DNA of 64,000 nt from Acidobacteriota bacterium (GTDB lineage: Bacteria > Acidobacteriota > Blastocatellia > Pyrinomonadales > Pyrinomonadaceae). Below the pieces are notes generated by a model. It searched no databases. It was not told the DNA's origin and saw only the letters and a list, made by a program, of their open reading frames with translations. Below are positions 3,468-51,595 of this stretch, in pieces; within the stretch, counting starts at the first letter, position 1; each line of letters starts with the position of its first letter. Location of the stretch: contig JAIVJG010000160.1 in the NCBI GenBank assembly GCA_020200155.1, positions 130 to 64,129 on the forward strand, given 5' to 3'. The position numbers were made by a program, and so were the translations under genes.

Positions 3468-3677
3468 GTTGATTCAGCGCCGCTCTGCGTTCGTGTTGTG
3501 CGCGGGTATGTTCATCGAACGCGGACGCGCGCTGATTCAGCGTAGCCGTGCGTTCGTTTAGCGCATTGATGCGCTGATTTAGCGCAGTCGTGAGTTCTTT
3601 CAGCGCAGGCGTGCGCTGATTTAGCGCGCGATTGCGTTTGTCCAGCGCAAGCGTGCGCTTATCTAGCGCAGAGGTGC
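3468..3677. repeat. Phased tandem array, about 10 x 21 bp (5 x 42-bp super-units), each unit carrying TGCGYT-N5-YAGCGCA-like dyad
   Basis: Units read directly, for example GCTGATTTAGCGCAGTCGTGA / GTTCTTTCAGCGCAGGCGTGC / GCTGATTTAGCGCGCGATTGC / GTTTGTCCAGCGCAAGCGTGC / GCTTATCTAGCGCAGAGGTGC. Odd and even units alternate. The array lies between the DpnI-like gene and the next ORF. Confidence 0.85.
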
Positions 3678-3795
3678 GGGAAACGTCCTCGACGTGGTGT
3701 TAAAGTTGTTATTGAAATGAGTTTAAGAGAAGCGTATGATGCCCGCGTTCACCTCGCGCAACGCTCACGTCCAAATACAAAAAAAGGAGTTTCCA

Positions 3796-7456: not shown

Positions 7457-8494
7457 TTATCCACCTCGTTTATTTTCTTCGGCGGCCAGCGCGCGTGCGA
7501 TTTCGTCAAGCGCCCGCGCATCCGCCACGCCGCCCTCTTTCGCCAGCCGCAGAGAATGTCGTCCGAGCAGCGCGTAGACGGCGAGCGGCTCATCATCCGG
7601 CAGCTTTTTGAGCGCGTCAAGATGCCTGCGCACGGTCGCCGCGTCGGCGCGCGCGAAAGTGCCTGTGAGCGCGCGGGCGGGCGTCCACGTCGAAAGGTTT
7701 TCGAGCGTGCTGCCGAGCAAAGGCAGGAGCACTTCGCATGCTCTCTTCTCCGGGAGGCCGCAACGCGCGAGCAAGTTGGCGGCGATGTCAAAGAGCGACA
7801 CCGTATGCCCGGAGGCCAACACCGCCGCCGCGTGATAGAGCGCCTTGTCGCGCGTCTCGACGGAAAAACTCTGCCCGCCGAGATCGCGCACGATCCCGCG
7901 CGCCGCGCGCACCGCCCGCCGGTCGCCTTCGACGCAGTAGAAGGCCGCGCGCAGACTCTCCGCACCGGCGACCGGATCGCTCACCGCAACCAGCGGGTGC
8001 ATCGAGCCGACCGCGACGCCGTGTGCGCGCAAAGGCGACAGCGCGTCCGACGAGAGCGCGCCGCTCGCGTGCAGCGCGACACGCACGCGCTTCGTCGTGC
8101 CGACAACTTCAGCGAGCCGCGCGGCGACTTCTGTGACAAGGTCGTCCGGCGTGGTGATGAGCAGCAGGTCTGCCGGCGGCAGTTGTTCGAGACGGGCCGC
8201 GCTGAGTGCGAGAGGCCGAGCGGCGTCTGTCGCTCCGGCAAGCGTCGCGGCCCTCCGCGCGTGGCGCACGTCGCGCGCGACGAGAGCGGCGACGTGATAG
8301 CCACACGCCGCCAGCGCGCGTGCCAGCGCAGTGCCGAGTCGTCCCGCACCGACAATCGCGACGCTCTGCGTTTGACACGCGCGACGCGGCAAGGGCAAAG
8401 AAGAAAGGGGAAAGGAAACTCGCCGCTTACGCGCTTCTCCTTTCCCCTCTCCCCTTTTTTCACGCCCTTCTTTTTCCTTCGTCCTACGGGCCAT
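7457..8494 (-). CDS. Rossmann-fold oxidoreductase-like protein with DUF2520-type C-terminal domain
   Basis: VAIVGAGRLGTALARAL dinucleotide fold with a DUF2520-like C-terminal half. The start is ambiguous. ATG 8494 has GGAGAG upstream but would translate a palindromic repeat element as MARRTKEKEGREKRGEGKGEARKRR. In-frame TTG codons at 8398 and 8392 would place the repeat outside the gene. Confidence 0.7.
   Translation of the reverse strand: MARRTKEKEGREKRGEGKGEARKRRVSFPLSSLPLPRRACQTQSVAIVGAGRLGTALARALAACGYHVAALVARDVRHARRAATLAGATDAARPLALSAARLEQLPPADLLLITTPDDLVTEVAARLAEVVGTTKRVRVALHASGALSSDALSPLRAHGVAVGSMHPLVAVSDPVAGAESLRAAFYCVEGDRRAVRAARGIVRDLGGQSFSVETRDKALYHAAAVLASGHTVSLFDIAANLLARCGLPEKRACEVLLPLLGSTLENLSTWTPARALTGTFARADAATVRRHLDALKKLPDDEPLAVYALLGRHSLRLAKEGGVADARALDEIARALAAEENKRGG
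8389..8481. repeat. Heptamer-built palindromic element (copy j)
   Basis: The 5' arm is AAGGGCA AAGAAGA AAGGGGA AAGGAAA and the 3' arm is CTTCTCC TTTCCCC TCTCCCC TTTTTTC. AGGGGAAAGG (8406-8415) pairs perfectly with CCTTTCCCCT (8439-8448). Confidence 0.7.
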
Positions 8495-13829: not shown

Positions 13830-14288
13830 ATGTCAACATACTTTCCCAGCGGGGTGGGCCTCGCGGAAAATCGCAAATGGTACGTCGTGGACGCGGCGGG
13901 TCAGACCGTCGGCAGGCTCGCGACGGAAGTGGCGCGCGTGCTCAGCGGCAAGAACAATCCGCGCTGGACGCCCTTCATGGACTTGGGCGACCACGTCATC
14001 GTCATCAACGCCCGCAAGGCCGTCTTCAAAGGCTCGAAGGCCGAGCAGAAGATGTACCGCCATCACACGCTGTACCCCGGCGGCCTGCGTGAAATCTCCG
14101 TGCGGGATCAGTTCGCCAAACACCCCGAGCGCGTCATCGAGCAGGCCGTCCGAGGCATGCTGCCCAAGAACAAGCTCGGCAAGGCGATGGGCAAGAAACT
14201 CAAGGTTTACGCCGACGAGGCGCACCCGCACTCCGCGCAACGCCCCGCAACGCTCGTGCTGGACGAGCGCGTGGCGGCGCAAAAATAA
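13830..14288 (+). CDS. rplM: 50S ribosomal protein L13
   Basis: [41 protein letters not shown]... is a typical L13 N-terminus. Confidence 0.95.
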
Positions 14289-14315
14289 CCCGCAGACTTT
14301 AAGGATAGAAGAACC

Positions 14316-14708
14316 GTGGCAGATATTCAGTATTACGGAACCGGACGGCGCAAGACTTCGACGGCGCGCGTCTACTTGCGACCGGGCAGCGGCGAGATCA
14401 AGATCAACCGCAAAACCTTCGAGCAGTACTTCCCCAACCAGGCGCTGCGGATGATTATCCGCCAGCCTCTGACGCTCACCGACACAGGTGCGAAGTTCGA
14501 CATCGTCGTCAACGTCGCGGGCGGCGGCCCTGCGGGACAGGCGGGCGCGGTTCGCCACGGCATCACGCGCGCCTTGATGGAGTACAACAGCGACCTCCGT
14601 CCAGACCTTAAGAAGGCCGGACTCGTCACGCGCGACCCCCGCATCAAGGAGCGCAAGAAGTACGGGCAGAAGGGCGCACGCAAGCGCTTCCAGTTCTCGA
14701 AGAGATAG
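14316..14708 (+). CDS. rpsI: 30S ribosomal protein S9
   Basis: GTG start; [19 protein letters not shown] ... [17 protein letters not shown] is a typical S9 sequence. Confidence 0.95.
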
Positions 14709-14715
14709 TTTTCGG

Positions 14716-14796
14716 AATGATGTGTGCGGAGTGATGAACGATGAATTAAAAGCCGTCGCGCTTTCATCTTTCAGTCATCACTCCGCACTTATCATT
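14716..14796. repeat. Heptamer-built palindromic element (copy a)
   Basis: GTGCGGAGTGATGA (14724-14737) pairs perfectly with TCATCACTCCGCAC (14775-14788). It is flanked by AATGAT/ATCATT and GATGAA/TTCATC pairs. The arms read in 7-nt words (GGAATGA TGTGTGC GGAGTGA TGAACGA TGAATTA). Confidence 0.75.
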
Positions 14797-14912
14797 CATC
14801 GTTTCGCACAATCCATTGTCGTGTCCCGATTGGTTGCCTTCACGTTCGTTTGTGAAAGTCCTCTGGGATGCGGCGAGTACACTAAACCAATCCGCTAAAG
14901 AGGAGGCTACTT

Positions 14913-15980
14913 TTGGCAGTAACCGTGACGATGAAAGAATTGCTGGAGGCCGGCGTGCACTTCGGCCACCAGGTCAGGCGCTGGAACCCGAAAATGAAGG
15001 AGTACATTTTCGGCGAGCGCAATGGCATCAACATTATTGATCTCCAAAAGACGCAGAAAATGTTCCGCGACGCCATCTCGTTCGTCACGAGTCTGGCGGG
15101 CGAAGATCGCGGGCGCACGATTCTCTTCGTCGGCACTAAACGACAGGCGCAGGACGCCATTCGTGAAGAAAGCGAGCGCGCCGGACAGTTCTACATCAAC
15201 CAGCGTTGGCTCGGAGGCTTGCTGACGAACTTCCAGACCGTGCAGAAATCCATCAAGCGCCTGCGCGATCTTGAAGCGATGCAGACCGACGGGCGCTACG
15301 AGAAGCTGACGAAGAAGGAGCGCATCAAGCTCGACCGCGAGCGCGAGACGTTGGAGAGGAACTTTTCGGGCATCAAGAACATGAACCGCATCCCCGACGC
15401 GCTCTTCATCATTGACGTGCGTAAAGAAGAGATCGCCGTCGCCGAAGCGAATCGCCTGGGCATTCCGGTCATCGCGGTCGTGGACACTAACTGCTCGCCC
15501 GAAGGGATTGACTACATCATCCCCGGCAACGACGACGCACTGCGCGCCGTGCGCCTCTTCGCCTCGCGCATCGCCGACGCGGTGATCGAAGGCCAGCAGG
15601 CGGCCTCGAAGGAAGAAGACGAAGAAGGCGAGGGTGGCGGCGGAGCGACGACAGAGCAACCCACCGGCGCACCAACCGGCACGGAGCGACCTGTCAACAC
15701 TTCGCCCGTCACGACGCAACGCGACCCCGGCGCGCCCTCGCAGATGGCGGCGGACACGGACGCAGCCAGCACTCTGGCTGGCGGGCAGTCTTCCGTTCCC
15801 GGCAATCAGGGCTTCGGTAAGACGGGGCAGCAGCCTGACAGCCTCGGCGACCACGAGCAGATCGGCACGGGCGCGCCCGTCCCCGGCGCTACGGGCGCTG
15901 CCGACAACTCTACGGAGAGTCAGCCTCAGACTTCACCTGAACAGGACAAGAGCGTGGAGTCGGTCGGCGCGGCCAAGTAA
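14913..15980 (+). CDS. rpsB: 30S ribosomal protein S2 with about 110-aa low-complexity C-terminal extension
   Basis: TTG start 6 nt after [36 protein letters not shown] is typical S2. The tail is rich in E/G/T/P/Q. Confidence 0.93.
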
Positions 15981-16063
15981 GGCGAAGCGGGAACAGCACA
16001 GATCACAACTTTCGGCGAGCGCAGCCTGCCAGTGCGGACAATCCGCCGGGCTGCGCATTTTTA

Positions 16064-16142
16064 TGATGCGGTGTGTTAAGCGTTGAATGATGAATGAACA
16101 GCAGCTTGTCTTTCATTCATCATCCGTCATTGCCGCATTCAT
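16064..16142. repeat. Heptamer-built palindromic element (copy b)
   Basis: GATGAATGAA (16089-16098) pairs perfectly with TTCATTCATC (16112-16121). An outer tier pairs ATGATGCGG with CCGCATTCAT. The word is TGAATGA. Confidence 0.75.
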
Positions 16143-16168
16143 CATTTTATCGAGGAGATAATCGAGTC

Positions 16169-16840
16169 ATGGCTGAGATTACTTCAGCGGCGGTGAAGTC
16201 ACTGCGTGAGAAGACGGGCGCGGGGATGATGGAGTGTAAGAAGGCGCTGACGGAGGCGGATGGCAGCGAAGCGCAGGCCATCGAAATCCTTCGCAAGCGC
16301 GGGATGGCGGCGGCCACGAAGAAGCAGGGACGCATCGCCGCAGAGGGCGCGGTCGGCTCTTACATTCACATGGGCGGCAAGGTCGGCGTCCTCGTCGAAG
16401 TCAACTGCGAGACCGATTTCGTCGCGCGCACAGAAGAGTTTCAGGCGCTCGTCAAGGACATCGCGATGCACATCGCGGCGGCGGAGCCGCGTTTCGTCAC
16501 GCGCGAAGAGGTCGCGCCGGACGTGCTCGACAAGGAGCGCGAGATCGCACGCGCGCAGGCCAAGAACGACCCGAAGAACGCCAGCAAGCCGGAACAGGTA
16601 ATTGATAAAATCGTCGAGGGGCGGATGAACAAGTTCTACGAAGAAGCCGTGCTGCTCGATCAGCCGTTCGTCAAAGACCCTGCGAAGACGGTCAACGACC
16701 TGCTCACAGAGAAGATCGCCAAGACGGGCGAGCGCATCACCGTGCGCCGCTTCGCGCGCTACAAGATGGGCGAGGGACTTGAAAAGCGCGGCGAGGATTT
16801 CGGCGGCGAAGTGGCGTCGCTCGCGGGCGGCAACCAGTAA
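16169..16840 (+). CDS. tsf: Elongation factor Ts
   Basis: [32 protein letters not shown] is the typical UBA-like N-terminus of EF-Ts. Confidence 0.95.
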
Positions 16841-16853
16841 ATCCGCAACTACC

Positions 16854-17645
16854 ATGACAACAGCCGAGGCACAGACGACAACGACGAGCGCGCCCGCTTT
16901 CCGCCGTATTCTTTTGAAGGCGTCCGGCGAGGCCCTGATGGGCGCGCAGAACTACGGCGTTGATGTTGGAGTGGCGCACGCGATTGCGGAAGAGATCAAG
17001 GCCATACACGCGCTCGGCGTCGAGATCGCGGTCGTCGTCGGCGGCGGCAACATTTTCCGGGGCGTCTCGGAGAGTGCGGGCAACATGGATCGCTCGTCCG
17101 CCGACTACATTGGCATGCTCGCGACGGTGATGAACGCAGTCGTCTTGCAGGACGCGCTCGAAAAGACGGGCGTGCACACGCGCGTGCTTTCCGCCATCAA
17201 CATCCCGCAGGTGGCCGAGCCTTTCATACGCCGCCGCGCCATCCGCCATCTGGAAAAGGGGCGCGTCGTCATTTTTGCTGCGGGCACGGGCAATCCGTAC
17301 TTCACGACCGACTCGGCGGCGGCGCTCCGCGCGCTCGAAATCAGGGCCGACGTGATCCTGAAGGCGACGAAGGTTGACGGGATTTACACAGCCGACCCCG
17401 TCAAAGACTCAGCGGCGACGCGCTACGACTGCATCACATACAGGGAAGTCCTCGAACAGCAGTTGAAGGTGATGGACGCCTCGGCCATCAGCCTGTGCAT
17501 GGACAACGGGCTGCCGATCATCGTTTTCAACATGCGCACGTCCGGCAACATCATGCGCGTCGTGATGGGCCAAGAGGGCGTCGGCACGCGTGTCTGCAAC
17601 GAAAGGCCGGTCAATAGTAAATCGTCAATGGTAAATGGAGAGTAG
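16854..17645 (+). CDS. pyrH: UMP kinase
   Basis: [14 protein letters not shown]...[11 protein letters not shown]...[20 protein letters not shown]. The last 12 or so codons lie inside the downstream palindromic element. Confidence 0.93.
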
Positions 17646-17689
17646 CTCCATTCGTTTACCATTGGCGATTCACCATTCACCATTTACCC
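17612..17689. repeat. Heptamer-built palindromic element (copy c)
   Basis: The arms are CAATAGT AAATCGT CAATGGT AAATGGAG and CTCCATTCGTTTACCATTGGCGATTCACCATTCACCATTTACC. TGGAG/CTCCA, GGTAAA/TTTACC and CGTCAAT/ATTGGCG pair around the 5-nt loop AGTAG. Confidence 0.75.
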
Positions 17690-17699
17690 GGAGAGCGAT

Positions 17700-18260
17700 A
17701 TGAGTGAGAAAGATGTCGTCAAGGAAGCGCGCCCGCGCATGGATGCGGCGGTGGAAGATTTCAGGCGTAAGCTGGGGACGATTCGCACGGGACGCGCGGC
17801 GGTGAATCTGCTCGACTCGGTGACTGTTGACTACTACGGCACGCCGACGCCGCTCAACCAGATAGCTTCAGTGCACGCGCCGGAGCCGTCGCTCCTGACC
17901 GTGCAGGCATGGGATCAAACGCAGCTTGGCGCGATTGAAAAGGCGATTCGCTCCTCAGACCTCGGATTGAATCCCTCGAATGACGGCAAGCTGGTGCGTG
18001 TGCCCGTCCCACCGCTGACGGAGGAGCGCCGTAAGCAACTCGCCAAGCAGGTACACGAGTACGCCGAAGACCACCGCACCGCCGTCCGCAACATTCGACG
18101 CGACACCAACGACCGCCTCAAGCGGATGCTCAAAGATAAGGAAATCTCCGAGGATGCCGAACGCGACGCGCTCGCGGAAGTGCAGAAGCTCACCGACCAG
18201 CACATCGGCAGGATAGACGAACTGGCGAAGAGCAAGGAGCAGGAGATTCTGACGGTCTAG
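17700..18260 (+). CDS. frr: Ribosome recycling factor
   Basis: 186 aa with a typical RRF sequence ([28 protein letters not shown]...). Confidence 0.95.
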
Positions 18261-18305
18261 CCCTTCACGCGCAAAAATCGCTCCCGACTTCAATCGTTTC
18301 CAACG

Positions 18306-18346
18306 AAAAGAGAGACTGCCCCGCATCGAGGCAGTCTCTCTTTTTG
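18306..18346. terminator. Bidirectional Rho-independent terminator (frr / convergent OMP gene)
   Basis: AAAAGAGAGACTGCC (18306-18320) pairs with GGCAGTCTCTCTTTT (18330-18344). It has an A-tract upstream and a T-tract downstream. Confidence 0.8.
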
Positions 18347-18409
18347 TATCCCGGCAATTCTCTAAACGACGAAGGGAGGCGCTTCCCTTCACCGTCTTCA
18401 AAGTGACTT

Positions 18410-29767: not shown

Positions 29768-30216
29768 TCACCAATCGCTGTAGCGCGTGCCGTCGGCAGC
29801 CGTGTCGCCGGAGGAACTGTGTACGTTCCCGACGCCGGAACCGTGGCCGGAAGGATCATCTCTAGGTTCGGTCGCCCAGTCGCCGGCCCCTGTCATCGGG
29901 TCAATGGGAAGCTCCTGTATGTATCCGGCCTGCACGAGCGCTTCGAGCGATTCCGGCTGCTTGCCCTTGTCGGCTGCGTACTGGTCAATCATCCTTCGCA
30001 TGTCGTGCAGGTCGGCCCTCAGTGTGGCCTCCTTGGCGGCCTGCACGGTCTGGCTGTAGTGAGCCATGGCAATCATCGCGAGGACGATGATGACCGAAAT
30101 GACGATCATCAGTTCGAGCAGAGTGAAGCCGGACGGTCGGCGGCGAGGAAAGGGTAAAGGGTAAAGGATGAAGGATGAAGGAGCAGTAAGCTCGCGGCCT
30201 CCCTTTCCACCTTCCA
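29768..30216 (-). CDS. GspG-like pseudopilin/pilin with prepilin-type N-terminal motif
   Basis: G|FTLLELMIVISVIIVLAMIA class-III signal. The only plausible start is GTG 30216, giving a 33-aa leader. The C-terminus is ...GTRYSDW. Confidence 0.7.
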
Positions 30217-30232
30217 CCTTCCCCCTGACCCT
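30144..30232. repeat. Heptamer-word purine/pyrimidine mirror element (copy d, degenerate)
   Basis: GAAAGGG TAAAGGG TAAAGGA TGAAGGA TGAAGGA G ... CTCCCTTTCC ACCTTCC ACCTTCC CCCTGACCCTC. Complementarity is only partial. It overlaps the leader-coding part of the pseudopilin gene. Confidence 0.5.
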
Positions 30233-30242
30233 CAATTCTTCT

Positions 30243-30971
30243 TTACCACTCACTGTATTTCTCTCCGTTGAGCGCAGTCCCTTCGGCCTTCGAGCGCACG
30301 TCGAACACGTTGACGGGATTCGAGGAGCAGCCGTCGTCGGGCGGGTCGTAGCTCGAACGCAGACACCAATCCTTCTCGCCCGTGATCGGGTCAACGGGAA
30401 TTTCGCGCAGGTAGATTTTCTTTTTGGTCGAGAGGAGTGGATTGTCGGTAGCGTTGCCCTTGGTGCCTCCCGCTAAAGCGCCCGCCACGGTGGAGCGCGG
30501 AATGACGCTGACGCCGCTCACGAGCGTCTCCAGATCGGGCGGGAAGTTGTCAGGGTTATCCACGCCGAAGATTTTGCAGTCGCTGATGACGACCTTGCTG
30601 CGCGGGTCTATGTAAGCTGTCGGAGGGGGGCCGCCCCCGGTGGTGGGAGCAACCGCGCAGGTCATGCCGATGGTATCGCGCTTGAACTCCTTGACGGCCT
30701 CGCGCATCTCCCGCAGCGCCTCGCGCAGTTGCTGCTCCTTCTGCCGCTGCACGGAATTCCTGACCAGTGGAATCACGCCGAGCGTCAGAATCGTCAGCAC
30801 CGTGATGACGATGACGAGTTCGATGATCGTCATGCCGCCTGTGGACGAGCGAAAGTGGGAGCGATTGAAAGGCGCGGGGTTGAAGGAACGGCTTGCCGCG
30901 ATCCCTTGTCCCGTTCTCCTTCTGGCCTCTCCCTTCATTTTCATCTGTCTGGCCTGCCGGTTACTCATCAA
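30243..30971 (-). CDS. GspG-like pseudopilin/pilin, long form
   Basis: The G|MTIIELVIVITVLTILTLG prepilin motif is preceded by a 37-46-aa leader. The C-terminus is ...NGEKYSEW and parallels the downstream paralog. Confidence 0.75.
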   Translation of the reverse strand: MMSNRQARQMKMKGEARRRTGQGIAASRSFNPAPFNRSHFRSSTGGMTIIELVIVITVLTILTLGVIPLVRNSVQRQKEQQLREALREMREAVKEFKRDTIGMTCAVAPTTGGGPPPTAYIDPRSKVVISDCKIFGVDNPDNFPPDLETLVSGVSVIPRSTVAGALAGGTKGNATDNPLLSTKKKIYLREIPVDPITGEKDWCLRSSYDPPDDGCSSNPVNVFDVRSKAEGTALNGEKYSEW

Positions 30972-33868: not shown

Positions 33869-33975
33869 GGGAAACAGAAGGCTCAGGCCAGCAGGCAGAA
33901 GGCGGAAAACAGAAGTCAGCGAAAGAGTCTGGTCGCTCCGGGGCTTACGGCTTACTGCTTTCTGCTTTCCCCGCC
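33869..33975. repeat. Heptamer-built palindromic element (copy i)
   Basis: Seven consecutive words CAGAAGG CTCAGGC CAGCAGG CAGAAGG CGGAAAA CAGAAGT CAGCGAA face CTTACGG CTTACTG CTTTCTG CTTTCCC CGCC. The 3' arm supplies the last codons and the stop of the gspE-like gene. Confidence 0.6.
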
Positions 33976-35699
33976 CCGTCGCCGTTGAGTTTGACCTCTT
34001 CGACGAAGGTGACGCGGTTGATCTCGTGCAGCGTCGAGACGCCTGCGAAAATTTTCTGGAGCGCCGACTCGCGCAAACTGCGTAAGCCTTCGGACTCCGC
34101 CGCGCGGCGCACTTCCGAGCCGGGCCGTCGCTCGATAATCATCTCGCGGATGTTGTCCGAGAGGTTGAGCAGTTCGTGAATCGCCGTGCGCCCGCGATAG
34201 CCCGTGTGGTTGCAGGCGTCGCAGCCGACGCTCATGTAGAAGGTGCGGTGCTGATGCTCCGACGGTCTCAGGCCCGACTCCATCAACTCCTCATCCGTCG
34301 GATGGTACGTGCGCTTGCAGACGTTGCAGAGCATGCGGACGAGCCGCTGCGCCAGCACGCAGTTCAAGCTTGAGACGAAGTTGTAAGGCTCCACGCCCAT
34401 GTTCAGGAAACGCCCGATAACGTCAATCACGTTGTTGGCGTGGACGGTCGTGAAGACGAGGTGGCCGGTCAGGGCCGACTGGATGGCGATCTGCGCCGTT
34501 TCATTGTCGCGGATTTCGCCGACCATGATCTTGTCCGGGTCGTGGCGCAGTATGGAGCGCAGGCCGCGCGCGAACGTCAGACCCTTCTTCTCGTTGACCG
34601 GAATCTGCGTGATGCCGTGCAACTGGTACTCGACCGGGTCTTCAATCGTGATGATCTTGTCTTCTTCGTTGCGAATCTCGTTGAGCGCGGCGTACAGAGT
34701 AGTCGTCTTGCCGGAGCCGGTCGGGCCTGTGACGAGCACCATGCCGTAAGGCTCGGCGATGTAGCGCCTGAAGTTCTTCAGGTCGTCGGCGTCGAAGCCG
34801 ACCACGTCGAGCTTGAGGTCGCGGAACTCGTCGTTGATTTGCTCCTTGTCGAGAATACGGATGACGGCGTCTTCGCCGTGCACGGTCGGCATGATCGAGA
34901 CGCGGAAGTCAACGGTGCGGCCCTTGTAGCGGACGCGAAAGCGCCCGTCCTGCGGCACGCGGCGCTCGGCGATGTCGAGTTCCGACATCACCTTGATGCG
35001 AGAGATGAGCGTCTGGTGATAGCTCAGGTCAATCGGATCAACCTTGGCGTAGAGCGCGCCGTCAATGCGGTACTTAACTTGTACCTCCGTGTCGCGCGTC
35101 TCGATGTGGATGTCGGAGGCGCGCGACTCCATCGCCTGATAGACGATGGTGTCCACGAGCTTGATGATCGGCGACATCTCGGAGTCGGTCGCCAGCCGGT
35201 CGAGGTCCAAGACCTCCTCGCCGTGTTCCGTCTCCTTGACGAGCGAGATGCGGAAGCCGGAAGTCGCTTCTTGGAGGACGCGCTGTGTTGCGTCGCCCTT
35301 GCGCAGCACCACGTCAATCGCGCCGGCAGTCGCTACGTGCGGGATGATGCGCGCGTGAAGGGCCGAGGCGATCTCGTCGAGGCGTTCGAGGTCGGTCGGG
35401 TCGGCCATCGCGATGTGCAGCCGACGCCCTTCGCGGCGGAGCGGGACGAACAGGTGGCGCACCATCAGGTCAACCGGAACCTCGCCGAGCAGAGCGAAAT
35501 CAATCGGGGATTCGCCGACCGGCGGGAGCAGGTCAACGTAAGGCAGGCGGTAGCGACGCGCGAGTTCCATCGCCGCGCGCACTTCGGGCGGCGTGTGGCC
35601 CTCGCCGTTCGCGCCGGGGGACGGACTTGAGCCGCGCGCCGCTGCGTCGTCGCCGGACGGCGCGGCCTCTGTCTTGATTTCTTCGGTTATCTGGCTCAT
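33945..35699 (-). CDS. GspE/PilB-family secretion ATPase
   Basis: 584 aa with a T2SSE_N-like N-domain, Walker A GPTGSGKTTT, Asp/His boxes, and a tetracysteine CNVC...CDAC motif. Confidence 0.92.
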   Translation of the reverse strand: MSQITEEIKTEAAPSGDDAAARGSSPSPGANGEGHTPPEVRAAMELARRYRLPYVDLLPPVGESPIDFALLGEVPVDLMVRHLFVPLRREGRRLHIAMADPTDLERLDEIASALHARIIPHVATAGAIDVVLRKGDATQRVLQEATSGFRISLVKETEHGEEVLDLDRLATDSEMSPIIKLVDTIVYQAMESRASDIHIETRDTEVQVKYRIDGALYAKVDPIDLSYHQTLISRIKVMSELDIAERRVPQDGRFRVRYKGRTVDFRVSIMPTVHGEDAVIRILDKEQINDEFRDLKLDVVGFDADDLKNFRRYIAEPYGMVLVTGPTGSGKTTTLYAALNEIRNEEDKIITIEDPVEYQLHGITQIPVNEKKGLTFARGLRSILRHDPDKIMVGEIRDNETAQIAIQSALTGHLVFTTVHANNVIDVIGRFLNMGVEPYNFVSSLNCVLAQRLVRMLCNVCKRTYHPTDEELMESGLRPSEHQHRTFYMSVGCDACNHTGYRGRTAIHELLNLSDNIREMIIERRPGSEVRRAAESEGLRSLRESALQKIFAGVSTLHEINRVTFVEEVKLNGDGAGKAESSKP

Positions 35700-37073: not shown

Positions 37074-37198
37074 GAAGGGATGAGGGCAAAGGGTCGAGGG
37101 TTGAATGAAAAGCCTTTTGAAATCCGACATCTCAAATTCGCAATTTCACTGACTCACCCCTCCGCCCTCATCTCTCATCCACCCCTCGCCTTCTCTCC
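37074..37198. repeat. Heptamer-word element (copy e, degenerate)
   Basis: GAAGGGA TGAGGGC AAAGGGT CGAGGGT TGAATGA AAAG ... CACCCCTCCGCCCTCATCTCTCATCCACCCCTCGCCTTCTCTCC. GATGAGGGC (37079-37087) pairs with GCCCTCATC (37164-37172). It lies in the divergent region upstream of gspF. Confidence 0.5.
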
Positions 37199-49585: not shown

Positions 49586-49634
49586 GATGTCGTTCAATAA
49601 AGTACCCGGAAGATGTCGCAATCCTGTCTCACAT

Positions 49635-49714
49635 AGTTCAAGGTTCAAAGTTCAAAGTTAGGGAACGGAGTCATGTTCTTCAGACTTTGAATTTTGAACC
49701 TTGAACTTTGAACT
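49635..49714. repeat. Heptamer-built palindromic element (copy f)
   Basis: AGTTCAA GGTTCAA AGTTCAA AGT (49635-49658) pairs 23/24 with ACTTTGAATTTTGAACCTTGAACT (49684-49707). The loop is 25 nt and an extra TTGAACT word follows. It starts 6 nt after the ribF stop on the minus strand. Confidence 0.85.
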
Positions 49715-50673: not shown

Positions 50674-50680
50674 AACAAAT

Positions 50681-50755
50681 AAGGGATGAGGGATGAAGAA
50701 TAAGGGATGAAAAGAGTGCATCCCGTTTCATTCATCCCTCATCCCTCATCCCTCG
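50681..50755. repeat. Heptamer-built palindromic element (copy g)
   Basis: AAGGGAT GAGGGAT GAAGAAT AAGGGAT GAAAAGA faces TTTCATTCATCCCTCATCCCTCATCCCTCG. 50682-50696 pairs perfectly with 50732-50746 (15 bp). There is an inner GGGATG/CATCCC hairpin. The 3' arm supplies the stop of the MBL gene. Confidence 0.85.
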
Positions 50756-51514: not shown

Positions 51515-51595
51515 GGTAAATGGTGAATGGTAGATAGTGAATGGTGAAAGACAGTTCATGTCCATTCGCCATTTACCATTCACCAGCATTTCACC
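51515..51595. repeat. Heptamer-built palindromic element (copy h)
   Basis: GGTAAAT GGTGAAT GGTAGAT AGTGAAT GGTGAAA G faces CCATTCGCCATTTACCATTCACCAGCATTTCACC. The stem is about 24 bp including G.U pairs. It shares words with copy c. Confidence 0.85.

Follow-up and report, generated by a model that had tools for sequence, protein, structure and literature searches.

In a 64,000-nucleotide stretch of contig JAIVJG010000160.1, from an Acidobacteriota bacterium of the family Pyrinomonadaceae (hereafter the window; GC content about 62%), hairpin-forming elements punctuate the gene string rplM-rpsI-rpsB-tsf-pyrH-frr (13830-18260, plus strand). Three of them, copies a, b, and c, lie after rpsI, between rpsB and tsf, and at the end of pyrH. 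By combining sequence comparison, folding, and synteny, we assign these copies, with a probability of about 0.85, to a class of intergenic palindromes that is defined by architecture and not by sequence, and that would represent an acidobacterial variant of the STRR-type heptamer hairpins. The class is laid out as three to five tandem 7-nt units forming a 5' arm, a short loop, and complementary units forming the 3' arm.

The first-pass annotation, made from the sequence alone, had already placed elements at these three positions, and folding confirms them. Copy a (14715-14797) is an imperfect palindrome with the words GAATGAT/GTGATGA/GATGAAT that starts 6 nt past the rpsI stop codon and folds at -40.6 kcal/mol (z = -8.4). 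It contains the 14-bp perfect core previously noted, formed by GTGCGGAGTGATGA (14724-14737) and TCATCACTCCGCAC (14775-14788). Copy b (16064-16142) is a heptamer palindrome of TGAATGA/GATGAAT in the rpsB-tsf spacer, ending 26 nt short of the tsf ATG at 16169. It is the weakest of the three (-26.8 kcal/mol, z = -3.1, equalled by 1 of 200 shuffles). Copy c (17609-17689) overlaps the end of pyrH and folds at -33.4 kcal/mol (z = -7.9), with the units GGTCAAT, AGTAAAT, CGTCAAT, and GGTAAAT in one arm and ATTGGCG, ATTCACC, ATTCACC, and ATTTACC in the other.

The proposal that a heptamer architecture recurs at these junctions is borne out by the periodicity of the arms. Among lags 3 to 11, each of the six arms of copies a, b, and c has its highest self-match at a lag of 7 (0.50-0.67), with permutation p values of 0.0002-0.0064, and the arms are AT-rich (33-48% GC) within a 62% GC genome. 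When a gapless Watson-Crick hairpin scan was combined with arm autocorrelation, the window yielded 15 long gapless hairpins, of which 7 had arms periodic at 7 nt, against 2 hairpins, 0-1 of them periodic, in six dinucleotide shuffles. Extraction of unbranched hairpins with ViennaRNA Lfold was dropped because high-GC coding sequence folds throughout, and self-blastn for inverted repeats missed gapped and adjacent arms.

Copy c also bears directly on a protein end. Eleven extra PyrH codons and a TAG stop occupy 17610-17645 (plus strand); the codons (17610-17642) make up the left arm of copy c, whose apical loop contains the stop (17643-17645). The closest relative with a pyrH-frr junction (contig L082, Tsf 94% identical) has a PyrH ending in ..GTRVCNERP*, and orthologous PyrH proteins carry a short variable tail after a conserved G(V/I)GT(R/K)V motif. 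The pyrH frame had been described as running into the element and gaining about 12 residues, which is correct apart from the count of 11. The accompanying suggestion that the element evolved across the stop codon likewise agrees with the alignments: the stop lies in the loop of copy c, and in two relatives a TGA stop falls within the first heptamer (GGTGAAT in L083, GTGATGA in L003). At copy b it is a start that is affected (16094-16168), as the longest tsf open reading frame (ORF; 248 aa) begins at an ATG inside the element and the real start is ATG 16169; similar false ORF starts are found at 49648 and 50721.

Scans for inverted repeats, tandem repeats, and folding locate six further sites with the same architecture, giving nine copies in the window, or about one per 7 kb. 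The element at 8397-8457 (AAAGAAG, AAAGGGG, AAAGGAA, and so on) follows a minus-strand gene of 1043 aa, whose stop is TAG 8486-8484, and precedes a DUF2520 gene whose likely start, TTG 8392, falls in the stem base. At 30149-30226, two AAAGGGT and two AAGGATG units face three of TTCCACC, 16 nt past the stop of a minus-strand gene (30243-30971). The copy at 49632-49713 (GTTCAAG/GTTCAAA, arms 93% complementary) lies 6 nt past the ribF stop (TGA 49722-49720, minus strand), and that at 50679-50754 (AGGGATG/GATGAAT) takes the stop of a Lactamase_B_2 gene (TGA 50748-50746) into its first heptamer; the ribF ATG (50673) follows 5 nt beyond this stem, with no Shine-Dalgarno sequence between them. Copy h (51515-51585; GGTAAAT, GGTGAAT, GGTAGAT, AGTGAAT) similarly holds a DUF1844 stop (TGA 51593-51591) in a GGTGAAA unit, the next ATG (51510) being 4 nt beyond the stem. 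The sole copy that does not adjoin a stop codon, 37076-37175 (AGGGATG, AGGGCAA, AGGGTCG, AGGGTTG, and so on), lies where a minus-strand T2SSF gene and a plus-strand VWA gene diverge. As judged from Pfam assignments of the flanking ORFs and from synteny, eight of the nine copies stand at co-directional junctions just 3' of a stop. All are strictly intergenic and overlap ORF termini only at their ends.

Most copies have words of their own, with loose sub-families a/b/50679, c/51515, and 50679/37076/30149. Sub-families had been anticipated from shared words, and the counts agree: GGTAAATGG, common to copies c and h, occurs four times and nowhere else in the window (expected 0.13), and GATGAATGA, common to copies a and b, also occurs four times (once in a, twice in b, once at 50728; expected 0.35). 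Sub-families within one genome, together with intergenic palindromes at about one per 7 kb, could be taken to indicate REP/REPIN- or MITE-like mobile elements spread by a dedicated transposase such as RAYT, and the recurrence of one 24-nt arm, GGTGAATGGTAAATAGTAAATGGT, without a mismatch at two L083 junctions would fit such spread. REPs are one or a few conserved sequences of 20-40 nt per genome with GTAG/CGTC heads and a cognate RAYT transposase (PMC3733652, PMC3116915). Like the REP, BIME, and REPIN elements of Enterobacteria and Pseudomonas, the window elements are intergenic imperfect palindromes that often stand directly after stops within operons. Unlike them, they share no 20-40 nt consensus, have 7-periodic and AT-rich arms in a 62% GC genome, and turn over their words in place, orthologous copies included; the words of most copies are unrelated. 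Conserved termini, GTAG/CGTC heads, and target-site duplications were not seen by eye, near-identical full-length copies are absent within the 64 kb, and a 24-nt match has a chance of roughly 1 in 100 within a degenerate family such as RGTRAAT. With the check for a transposase covering ten flanking ORFs, a dedicated mobile system is in our view very unlikely. The identical arms of L083 hint at ectopic copying, weakly so within a degenerate word family.

When the elements are placed in the context of related genomes, additional insight is gained into how they change. The rplM-to-frr order is syntenic in 15 Blastocatellia genomes (L001-L015) and in three closer sets of contigs, ranked by Tsf identity to the window: L082 (94%), L083/L084 (90%), and L085/L086 (89%). 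The nearest other Tsf proteins, 88-94% identical, come from metagenome-assembled genomes (MAGs) of Pyrinomonadaceae. Another contig, L081, was tried as a close relative on account of its top Tsf score (P0001) and rejected as a more distant, AT-richer relative. The first-pass annotation had allowed that orthologous operons might lack any structured spacer; in the relatives compared, they carry such spacers. Twenty related contigs show the same architecture at the same and at other junctions, usually with different words. Examples are CAGTTTT/CTGAAAA after rpsI, TTACGAG after tsf, and fourfold GTGATGA after pyrH in L003; GTTTCAG after rplM and fourfold AGTGGAG after tsf in L010; GTTTCAA after pyrH in L006 and L009; TTGGGAT, GGTCTTT, GTCCCTG, and GTCCCGA in L012; and GTGACGA, CAGTAG, and GTGATAA in L085.

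Presence at a given junction is variable. Only 2 of 14 genomes have an element between rplM and rpsI. The tsf-pyrH spacer measures 3-13 nt, or the genes overlap, in the window, L001, L082, L004, and L005; in L003, L010, and L083, where it includes an element, it is 58-103 nt long. No element separates pyrH from frr in L005, L008, L010, L013, and L014, and the junction of the 1043-aa and DUF2520 genes, which carries orthologous elements in the window and L085, is a 4-nt gene overlap in L083. Because sister-genome spacers at element sites are only 3-30 nt long or are gene overlaps, and because presence is patchy, the elements are best read as inserts into minimal spacers and not as conserved operon modules. 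The position after rpsI, the usual end of the rplM-rpsI unit, differs in that each of the 17 genomes compared (the window and L082, plus L001-L015 without L007 and L009) has some hairpin there, a periodic one in about 10.

Copy c illustrates in-place change. Its orthologues in L083 and L082 share the flanks found in the window (..ATTTACCCGGAG), and the unit reads GGTNAAT/ATTNACC in the window and L083 and CGTNAAT/ATTNACG in L082, a change spread across several units and both arms. In the three-way alignment, 92% of cells are paired in register, compared with 24-51% when the register is slid, and four pairs have changed on both sides, a number reached by 27 of 500 shuffles. Three sequences thus provide modest evidence that pairing has been maintained, and either selection or DNA-level copying from arm to arm would fit. 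Copy b is orthologous in L083, with a common 3' end (CCGCATTCATCATTTT). At the same site, L082 has the unrelated words GGAGTCA, GAGGCCG, and GAAGTCT, set between the same conserved terminator and Shine-Dalgarno sequence. Words have accordingly been replaced between genomes whose Tsf proteins are still about 89-94% identical.

The architecture is not confined to the operon in which it was noticed. A metagenome scan for GGTRAATRGTRAATRGTRA matched at least 120 stretches, and 80 loci of 33-66% GC were examined; complementary ATTYAC units stand across a loop-sized gap in 39 of the 156 pattern matches listed, about a quarter. The window, the relatives, and the examined metagenome loci form a pool of 873 kb, in which 7 is the best arm period of 124 out of 238 long gapless hairpins, each other lag from 3 to 11 being best in 10-18. 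With the ascertained word type excluded, period 7 is still best in 40 of 118 metagenome hairpins and other lags in at most 16 each. On a low-GC contig with GGTRAAT hairpins (L113), the best named matches, to Pseudomonadota and Verrucomicrobiota MAGs, are only 67-68% identical. A 35% GC contig (L093, Ga0265293_10000294) has 13 perfect tandem GGTGAAT units at 1113-1200, followed by a pyrimidine-rich arm of other words (CTCACTA, CTCACCA, CTTACTT, and so on), so long arrays of a single word occur in a low-GC organism. Hairpins of the same build with units of 8 nt (fourfold AAAAGTGA) or 9 nt (GACAGGATT, GGAAGTTTT) also exist but are rare (L010 8077-8188, L003 12129-12223, and L010 3850-3924).

A second regularity concerns the arms themselves. 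Whichever strand is read, the 5' arm has more G than C in 86 of 101 period-7 hairpins and fewer in 7. The ratio is 19:3 for relatives with other words, 23:4 for metagenome loci with other words, and 39:0 for the GGTRAAT type, compared with 48:31 for non-periodic hairpins; 5' arms in relatives consist of 0.29 A, 0.10 C, 0.29 G, and 0.32 T. We had described this as a purine arm lying on the left, in relation to replication or genes. That description was abandoned and recast as a polarity of 5' versus 3' arm, since a palindrome is identical on both strands and only the order of the arms carries meaning. The arms also differ in stops in all three frames, which 59 of the 5' arms and 7 of the 3' arms contain, a contrast that the GGTRAAT type mostly accounts for. 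A GT dinucleotide occurs in 16 of 23 words by hand count, where about half would be expected, a signal too weak to use. The polarity is primarily one of G over C and is the observation least well explained under any model. Its reason could possibly be translational, the 5' arm supplying stops and the 3' arm having few starts, or mechanistic, if the G-rich strand is always the one extended at its 3' end.

Turnover without conservation of words invites a neutral or selfish explanation, which we regard as the main rival. The elements would be palindromic microsatellites that arise by 7-nt slippage and by quasi-palindrome correction or template switching, are occasionally copied ectopically, play no part in RNA, and accumulate wherever they do no harm, that is, in short intergenic spacers. 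Patchy presence, replacement of words among genomes with 89-94% identical Tsf, strictly intergenic location with only the ends overlapping ORF termini, the absence of a G:U bias on the sense strand, and the identical 24-nt arm at two L083 junctions would all be accommodated in this way, and the recurrence of the same word families in contigs from 33% to 66% GC points to a general mutational attractor. Simple slippage with template switching does not, however, predict the strand-independent polarity of 86:7, nor does it lead one to expect the tight placement about 2 nt after stops and about 18 nt before starts, the presence of some hairpin after rpsI in all 17 genomes, or pairing maintained over three copy c orthologues. 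As all four of these points could also result from neutrality combined with purifying selection against harmful variants, a neutral origin is a serious possibility, if one we consider unlikely.

Since copy a stands at the usual end of the rplM-rpsI operon, it is conceivable that the hairpins act as weak or U-tract-less intrinsic terminators or attenuators, splitting the units rplM-rpsI, rpsB-tsf(-pyrH), and frr as in E. coli. By eye, the copy a core AGTGCGG..CCGCACTT resembles a GC-rich hairpin after rpsI in L001, which is followed by TTTAAT. Pyrimidine-rich 3' arms would give a weak hybrid of the rU:dA type, and short T-rich stretches are found after copy b (TTTTAT) and after the 50679 element (TTATTTGTT, minus strand). 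The first-pass annotation had conceded that ordinary U-tract terminators might have been overlooked. Copies a, b, and c are not such terminators: a terminator scan flags 0 of 3, no U-tract follows copies a and c, and the respective tails are ATCGTTTC, TTTTATCG (borderline), and ATTTACCC. What had indeed been missed is a canonical terminator or attenuator of rpsB just 5' of copy b (16021-16066, plus strand; GCAGCCTG..CGGGCTGC followed by ATTTTTAT; -25.5 kcal/mol, z = -3.5). It stands outside the heptamer family, its sequence is kept in L082, L083, and L010-L013, and copy b begins in its T-tract. A second canonical intrinsic terminator follows frr (18303-18347, plus strand; a 21-nt stem, then TTTTTGT). 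The genome thus uses the canonical stem and T-run type, and copy b, downstream of one, would be redundant as a terminator. As several elements moreover end 4-18 nt before a start codon, which leaves no space for a promoter, and some replace 4-nt gene overlaps, a terminator function seems quite unlikely.

Of a more general function in RNA, the first-pass annotation had argued that use of the structures at nearly every junction of highly expressed operons pointed to it. This argument is weakened: presence is patchy, words are replaced, and folding shows no consistent advantage of the sense strand. Rfam gives no match in the window at gathering score; at E <= 1 the only matches are to plant miRNA precursors, at 20-26 bits against gathering scores of 60-114, as generic long hairpins would produce. 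A role at the RNA level, for example in differential decay, is a plausible hypothesis.

The 7-nt period has no structural meaning in a duplex, and this would favor the view that the units are registers for a single-strand-binding protein, such as a cold-shock-domain protein whose domains would each cover about 7 nt, or G-quadruplex switches built from GGG words, the hairpin being only a resting state. Cold-shock-domain proteins have been raised for heptamer direct repeats (PMC4679880), and G-rich 5' arms are the rule here. The 5' arm of the 37076 element (AGGGATGAGGGCAAAGGGTCGAGGG, 37076-37103) consists of G3N4 repeated four times and is G-quadruplex capable, in the only copy of the window that lies in a divergent promoter region. 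Set against this, a sequence-specific binder would not accommodate such diverse words, most words could not form a G-quadruplex, and periods of 8 and 9 exist as well, which makes such an explanation extremely improbable.

Returning to heptamer palindromes that are turned over in DNA and tolerated at gene junctions, the following mechanism can be proposed, to which we give an even chance overall. An element would first be seeded in a very short spacer or a gene overlap, immediately past a stop codon, and would then grow and change its words in place through gain and loss of 7-nt units, while either intrastrand template switching, which copies one arm onto the other, or selection for pairing keeps the arms complementary. 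In RNA, a stem of 25-35 bp would loop out the entire insert, so that the upstream stop and the downstream ribosome-binding site or start stay adjacent at the stem base. Such adjacency would preserve translational coupling, and we propose that inserts are for this reason tolerated in essential, highly expressed operons. The element would not be a terminator. Its stem might double as the 3' stem-loop of the upstream cistron, as a barrier to 3' exonucleases or as an RNase III site; REPs reportedly protect upstream mRNA from 3' exonucleases, cause attenuation, and affect translation when within about 15 nt of a stop. The polarity could be accommodated if the G-rich, stop-rich 5' arm halts ribosomes that overrun a stop and the G-poor 3' arm, with few start codons, avoids spurious starts ahead of the next gene. 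The first possible downstream start lies a median of 18 nt from the stem, and within 30 nt in 35 of 52 cases.

Several observations weigh against this proposal. The median distance of 2 nt from the stop of an upstream long ORF to the stem derives from a count that is partly inflated, as stop-rich arms close any open frame and give negative distances. Among relatives with other words, stops in all three frames are found in only 7 of the 5' arms, compared with 5 of the 3' arms. No stop codon is near the copy at 37076-37175, whose neighbors are divergent genes, and the distance to the next start is about 115-130 nt for copy a, about 290 nt for 30149-30226, and about 46 nt for 49632-49713, so bridging of stop and start is not general. 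Patchy presence among close relatives means that no junction requires an element. For elements of known sense strand, fold energies of sense and antisense strands differ by about -7 to +9 kcal/mol in both directions, with no consistent sense advantage, so a G:U signature of selection on the transcript is not seen, and the hairpins may be maintained purely at the DNA level. Finally, two near-identical strain pairs show no change in unit number within elements, and slippage is thus not seen directly: L083 and L084 are 99.55% identical, with all 14 mismatches in coding sequence and no element indels, and L085 and L086 are identical.

A further possibility, which we think improbable, is that a dedicated DNA-level mechanism writes 7-nt-periodic palindromes directly at stop codons, with the G-rich strand always 5' of the loop, across phyla, including Acidobacteriota, Cyanobacteria, and the hosts of the 33-66% GC contigs with the same GGTRAAT hairpins, and that the stems couple translation by bringing a stop and the next start together, so that genes such as ribF, which lacks a Shine-Dalgarno sequence and has its ATG 5 nt past a stem, would be translated by re-initiation. 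The writer might be an enzyme or a mobile system, acting for instance by templated extension of 3' ends at breaks followed by joining or fold-back copying.

Comparison with known systems helps to define what the class is. In cyanobacteria, heptamer repeats and STRR hairpins were already known around 1990, the classical STRR consensus units being CCCCAGT, TTGGTCA, and CAACAGT, and to our knowledge they have no accepted origin or function. In several filamentous cyanobacteria, STRR hairpins "usually made up of 7 bp repeats" lie between hupS and hupL; their function was reported as unknown, with transcript stability or translational coupling proposed (PMC2670836). Nostoc PCC 7120 has a TTGTCAG array and, about 85 nt further on, an array of CTGAC type (PMC2408588), an arrangement that in this single anecdote shows the same G-first polarity as the window elements. 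Both kinds of element are tandem 7-bp units that form hairpins between cistrons or near gene ends, in many copies per genome. The polarity rule, flush placement after stops, and stop codons supplied by the arms found no counterpart in STRR descriptions within the literature searched. Since the host phylum (Acidobacteriota, here Pyrinomonadaceae) is not that of the filamentous cyanobacteria, and since the words differ, with nearly each copy having its own, the elements appear as an analogue of STRR and not as a member in the narrow sense.

Other systems share individual features. TAACTGA heptamer direct repeats of Beggiatoaceae, Cyanobacteria, and some Bacteroidetes lie near translation signals, and three copies close all frames (PMC4679880). 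They resemble the window elements as intergenic 7-nt tandem units that contain stop codons, but are direct arrays of one dominant word, mostly just 5' of starts, with one inverted case reported, whereas here inverted and diverse units are the rule. Palindromic microsatellite-like repeats that spread in noncoding DNA of Fusarium and green-algal mitochondria (PMC7218506, PMC4524435) are also short-unit palindromic repeats, from eukaryotic organelles and with no stop-start link. Integron attC sites, hairpins defined by their structure, come directly after the ORFs of cassettes; copies a, b, and c stand in a conserved ribosomal operon and not in a cassette array. For Acidobacteria, no description of such hairpins was found in the literature searched, the matches being cyanobacterial STRR, Beggiatoaceae TAACTGA repeats, G-quadruplex-forming heptamers, and REP.

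The genes of the string are rplM (13830-14288), rpsI (14316-14708), rpsB (about 14913-15980), tsf (16169-16840, its ATG preceded by the Shine-Dalgarno sequence GAGGAG), pyrH (16854-17645), and frr (17700-18260, with the Shine-Dalgarno sequence GGAGAG directly after copy c), all on the plus strand. In RpsB, an acidic, low-complexity, proline- and threonine-rich C-terminal extension of about 110 residues (15590-15980, the 3' third of rpsB) differs in length between relatives. Upstream of rpsB, a leader-like conserved element (14822-14912) is shared with L001-L014, L082, and L085. It is laid out as CCATTGYCGC..GATTGGTTG, a variable hairpin, GCGGCGAGTACA..AAACCAAT, and GGAGG. Sixteen Blastocatellia preserve its stem TTGTCGC/GCGGCGA, in which 4 of 7 pairs show changes on both sides, and GATTGGTT/AACCAATC may form a pseudoknot. 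The leader has no Rfam match and is a candidate S2 (rpsB) autoregulatory leader for the Blastocatellia lineage.

Repeats of other kinds were also encountered. A direct heptamer array (two GGCTTAC and two TGCTTTC units, 33942-33969) lies over the stop of a minus-strand gene (33945-35699) and has no complementary arm nearby, so no hairpin goes with it. At 3529-3678, in a lower-GC stretch (54-56%), the sequence repeats in tandem with a unit of 21/42 nt, the 42-nt unit in about 3.4 copies, and includes small palindromes of GCGCTGATTTAGCGC type. In the relatives, a second, non-periodic palindrome family with GTACGACAGGCTGTTAGCCTGTCG, ACGACAAACTTTAGTTTGTCG, and AAAGCAAACTGTTAGTTTGCG recurs at several junctions (L008 3729-3841 and 6681-6773, L012 5930-5992, and L009 551-623).

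At a practical level, the elements shift stop codons and lengthen proteins at the C-terminus, as by 11 residues in PyrH; they also mislead simple ORF callers, as with the 248-aa Tsf ORF, and are likely break points in short-read assemblies of Blastocatellia MAGs. An STRR-like architecture is now seen in a distant, high-GC phylum, inside a highly conserved and highly expressed gene string. Three quantitative rules are available for any model to explain, namely the 7-nt period, the strand-independent G-rich 5' arm, and placement flush with a stop and at a ribosome-binding-site-sized gap from the next start. These rules lead to testable hypotheses of stem-bridged translational coupling, of a protective 3' stem-loop, and of a pure DNA-level drive.

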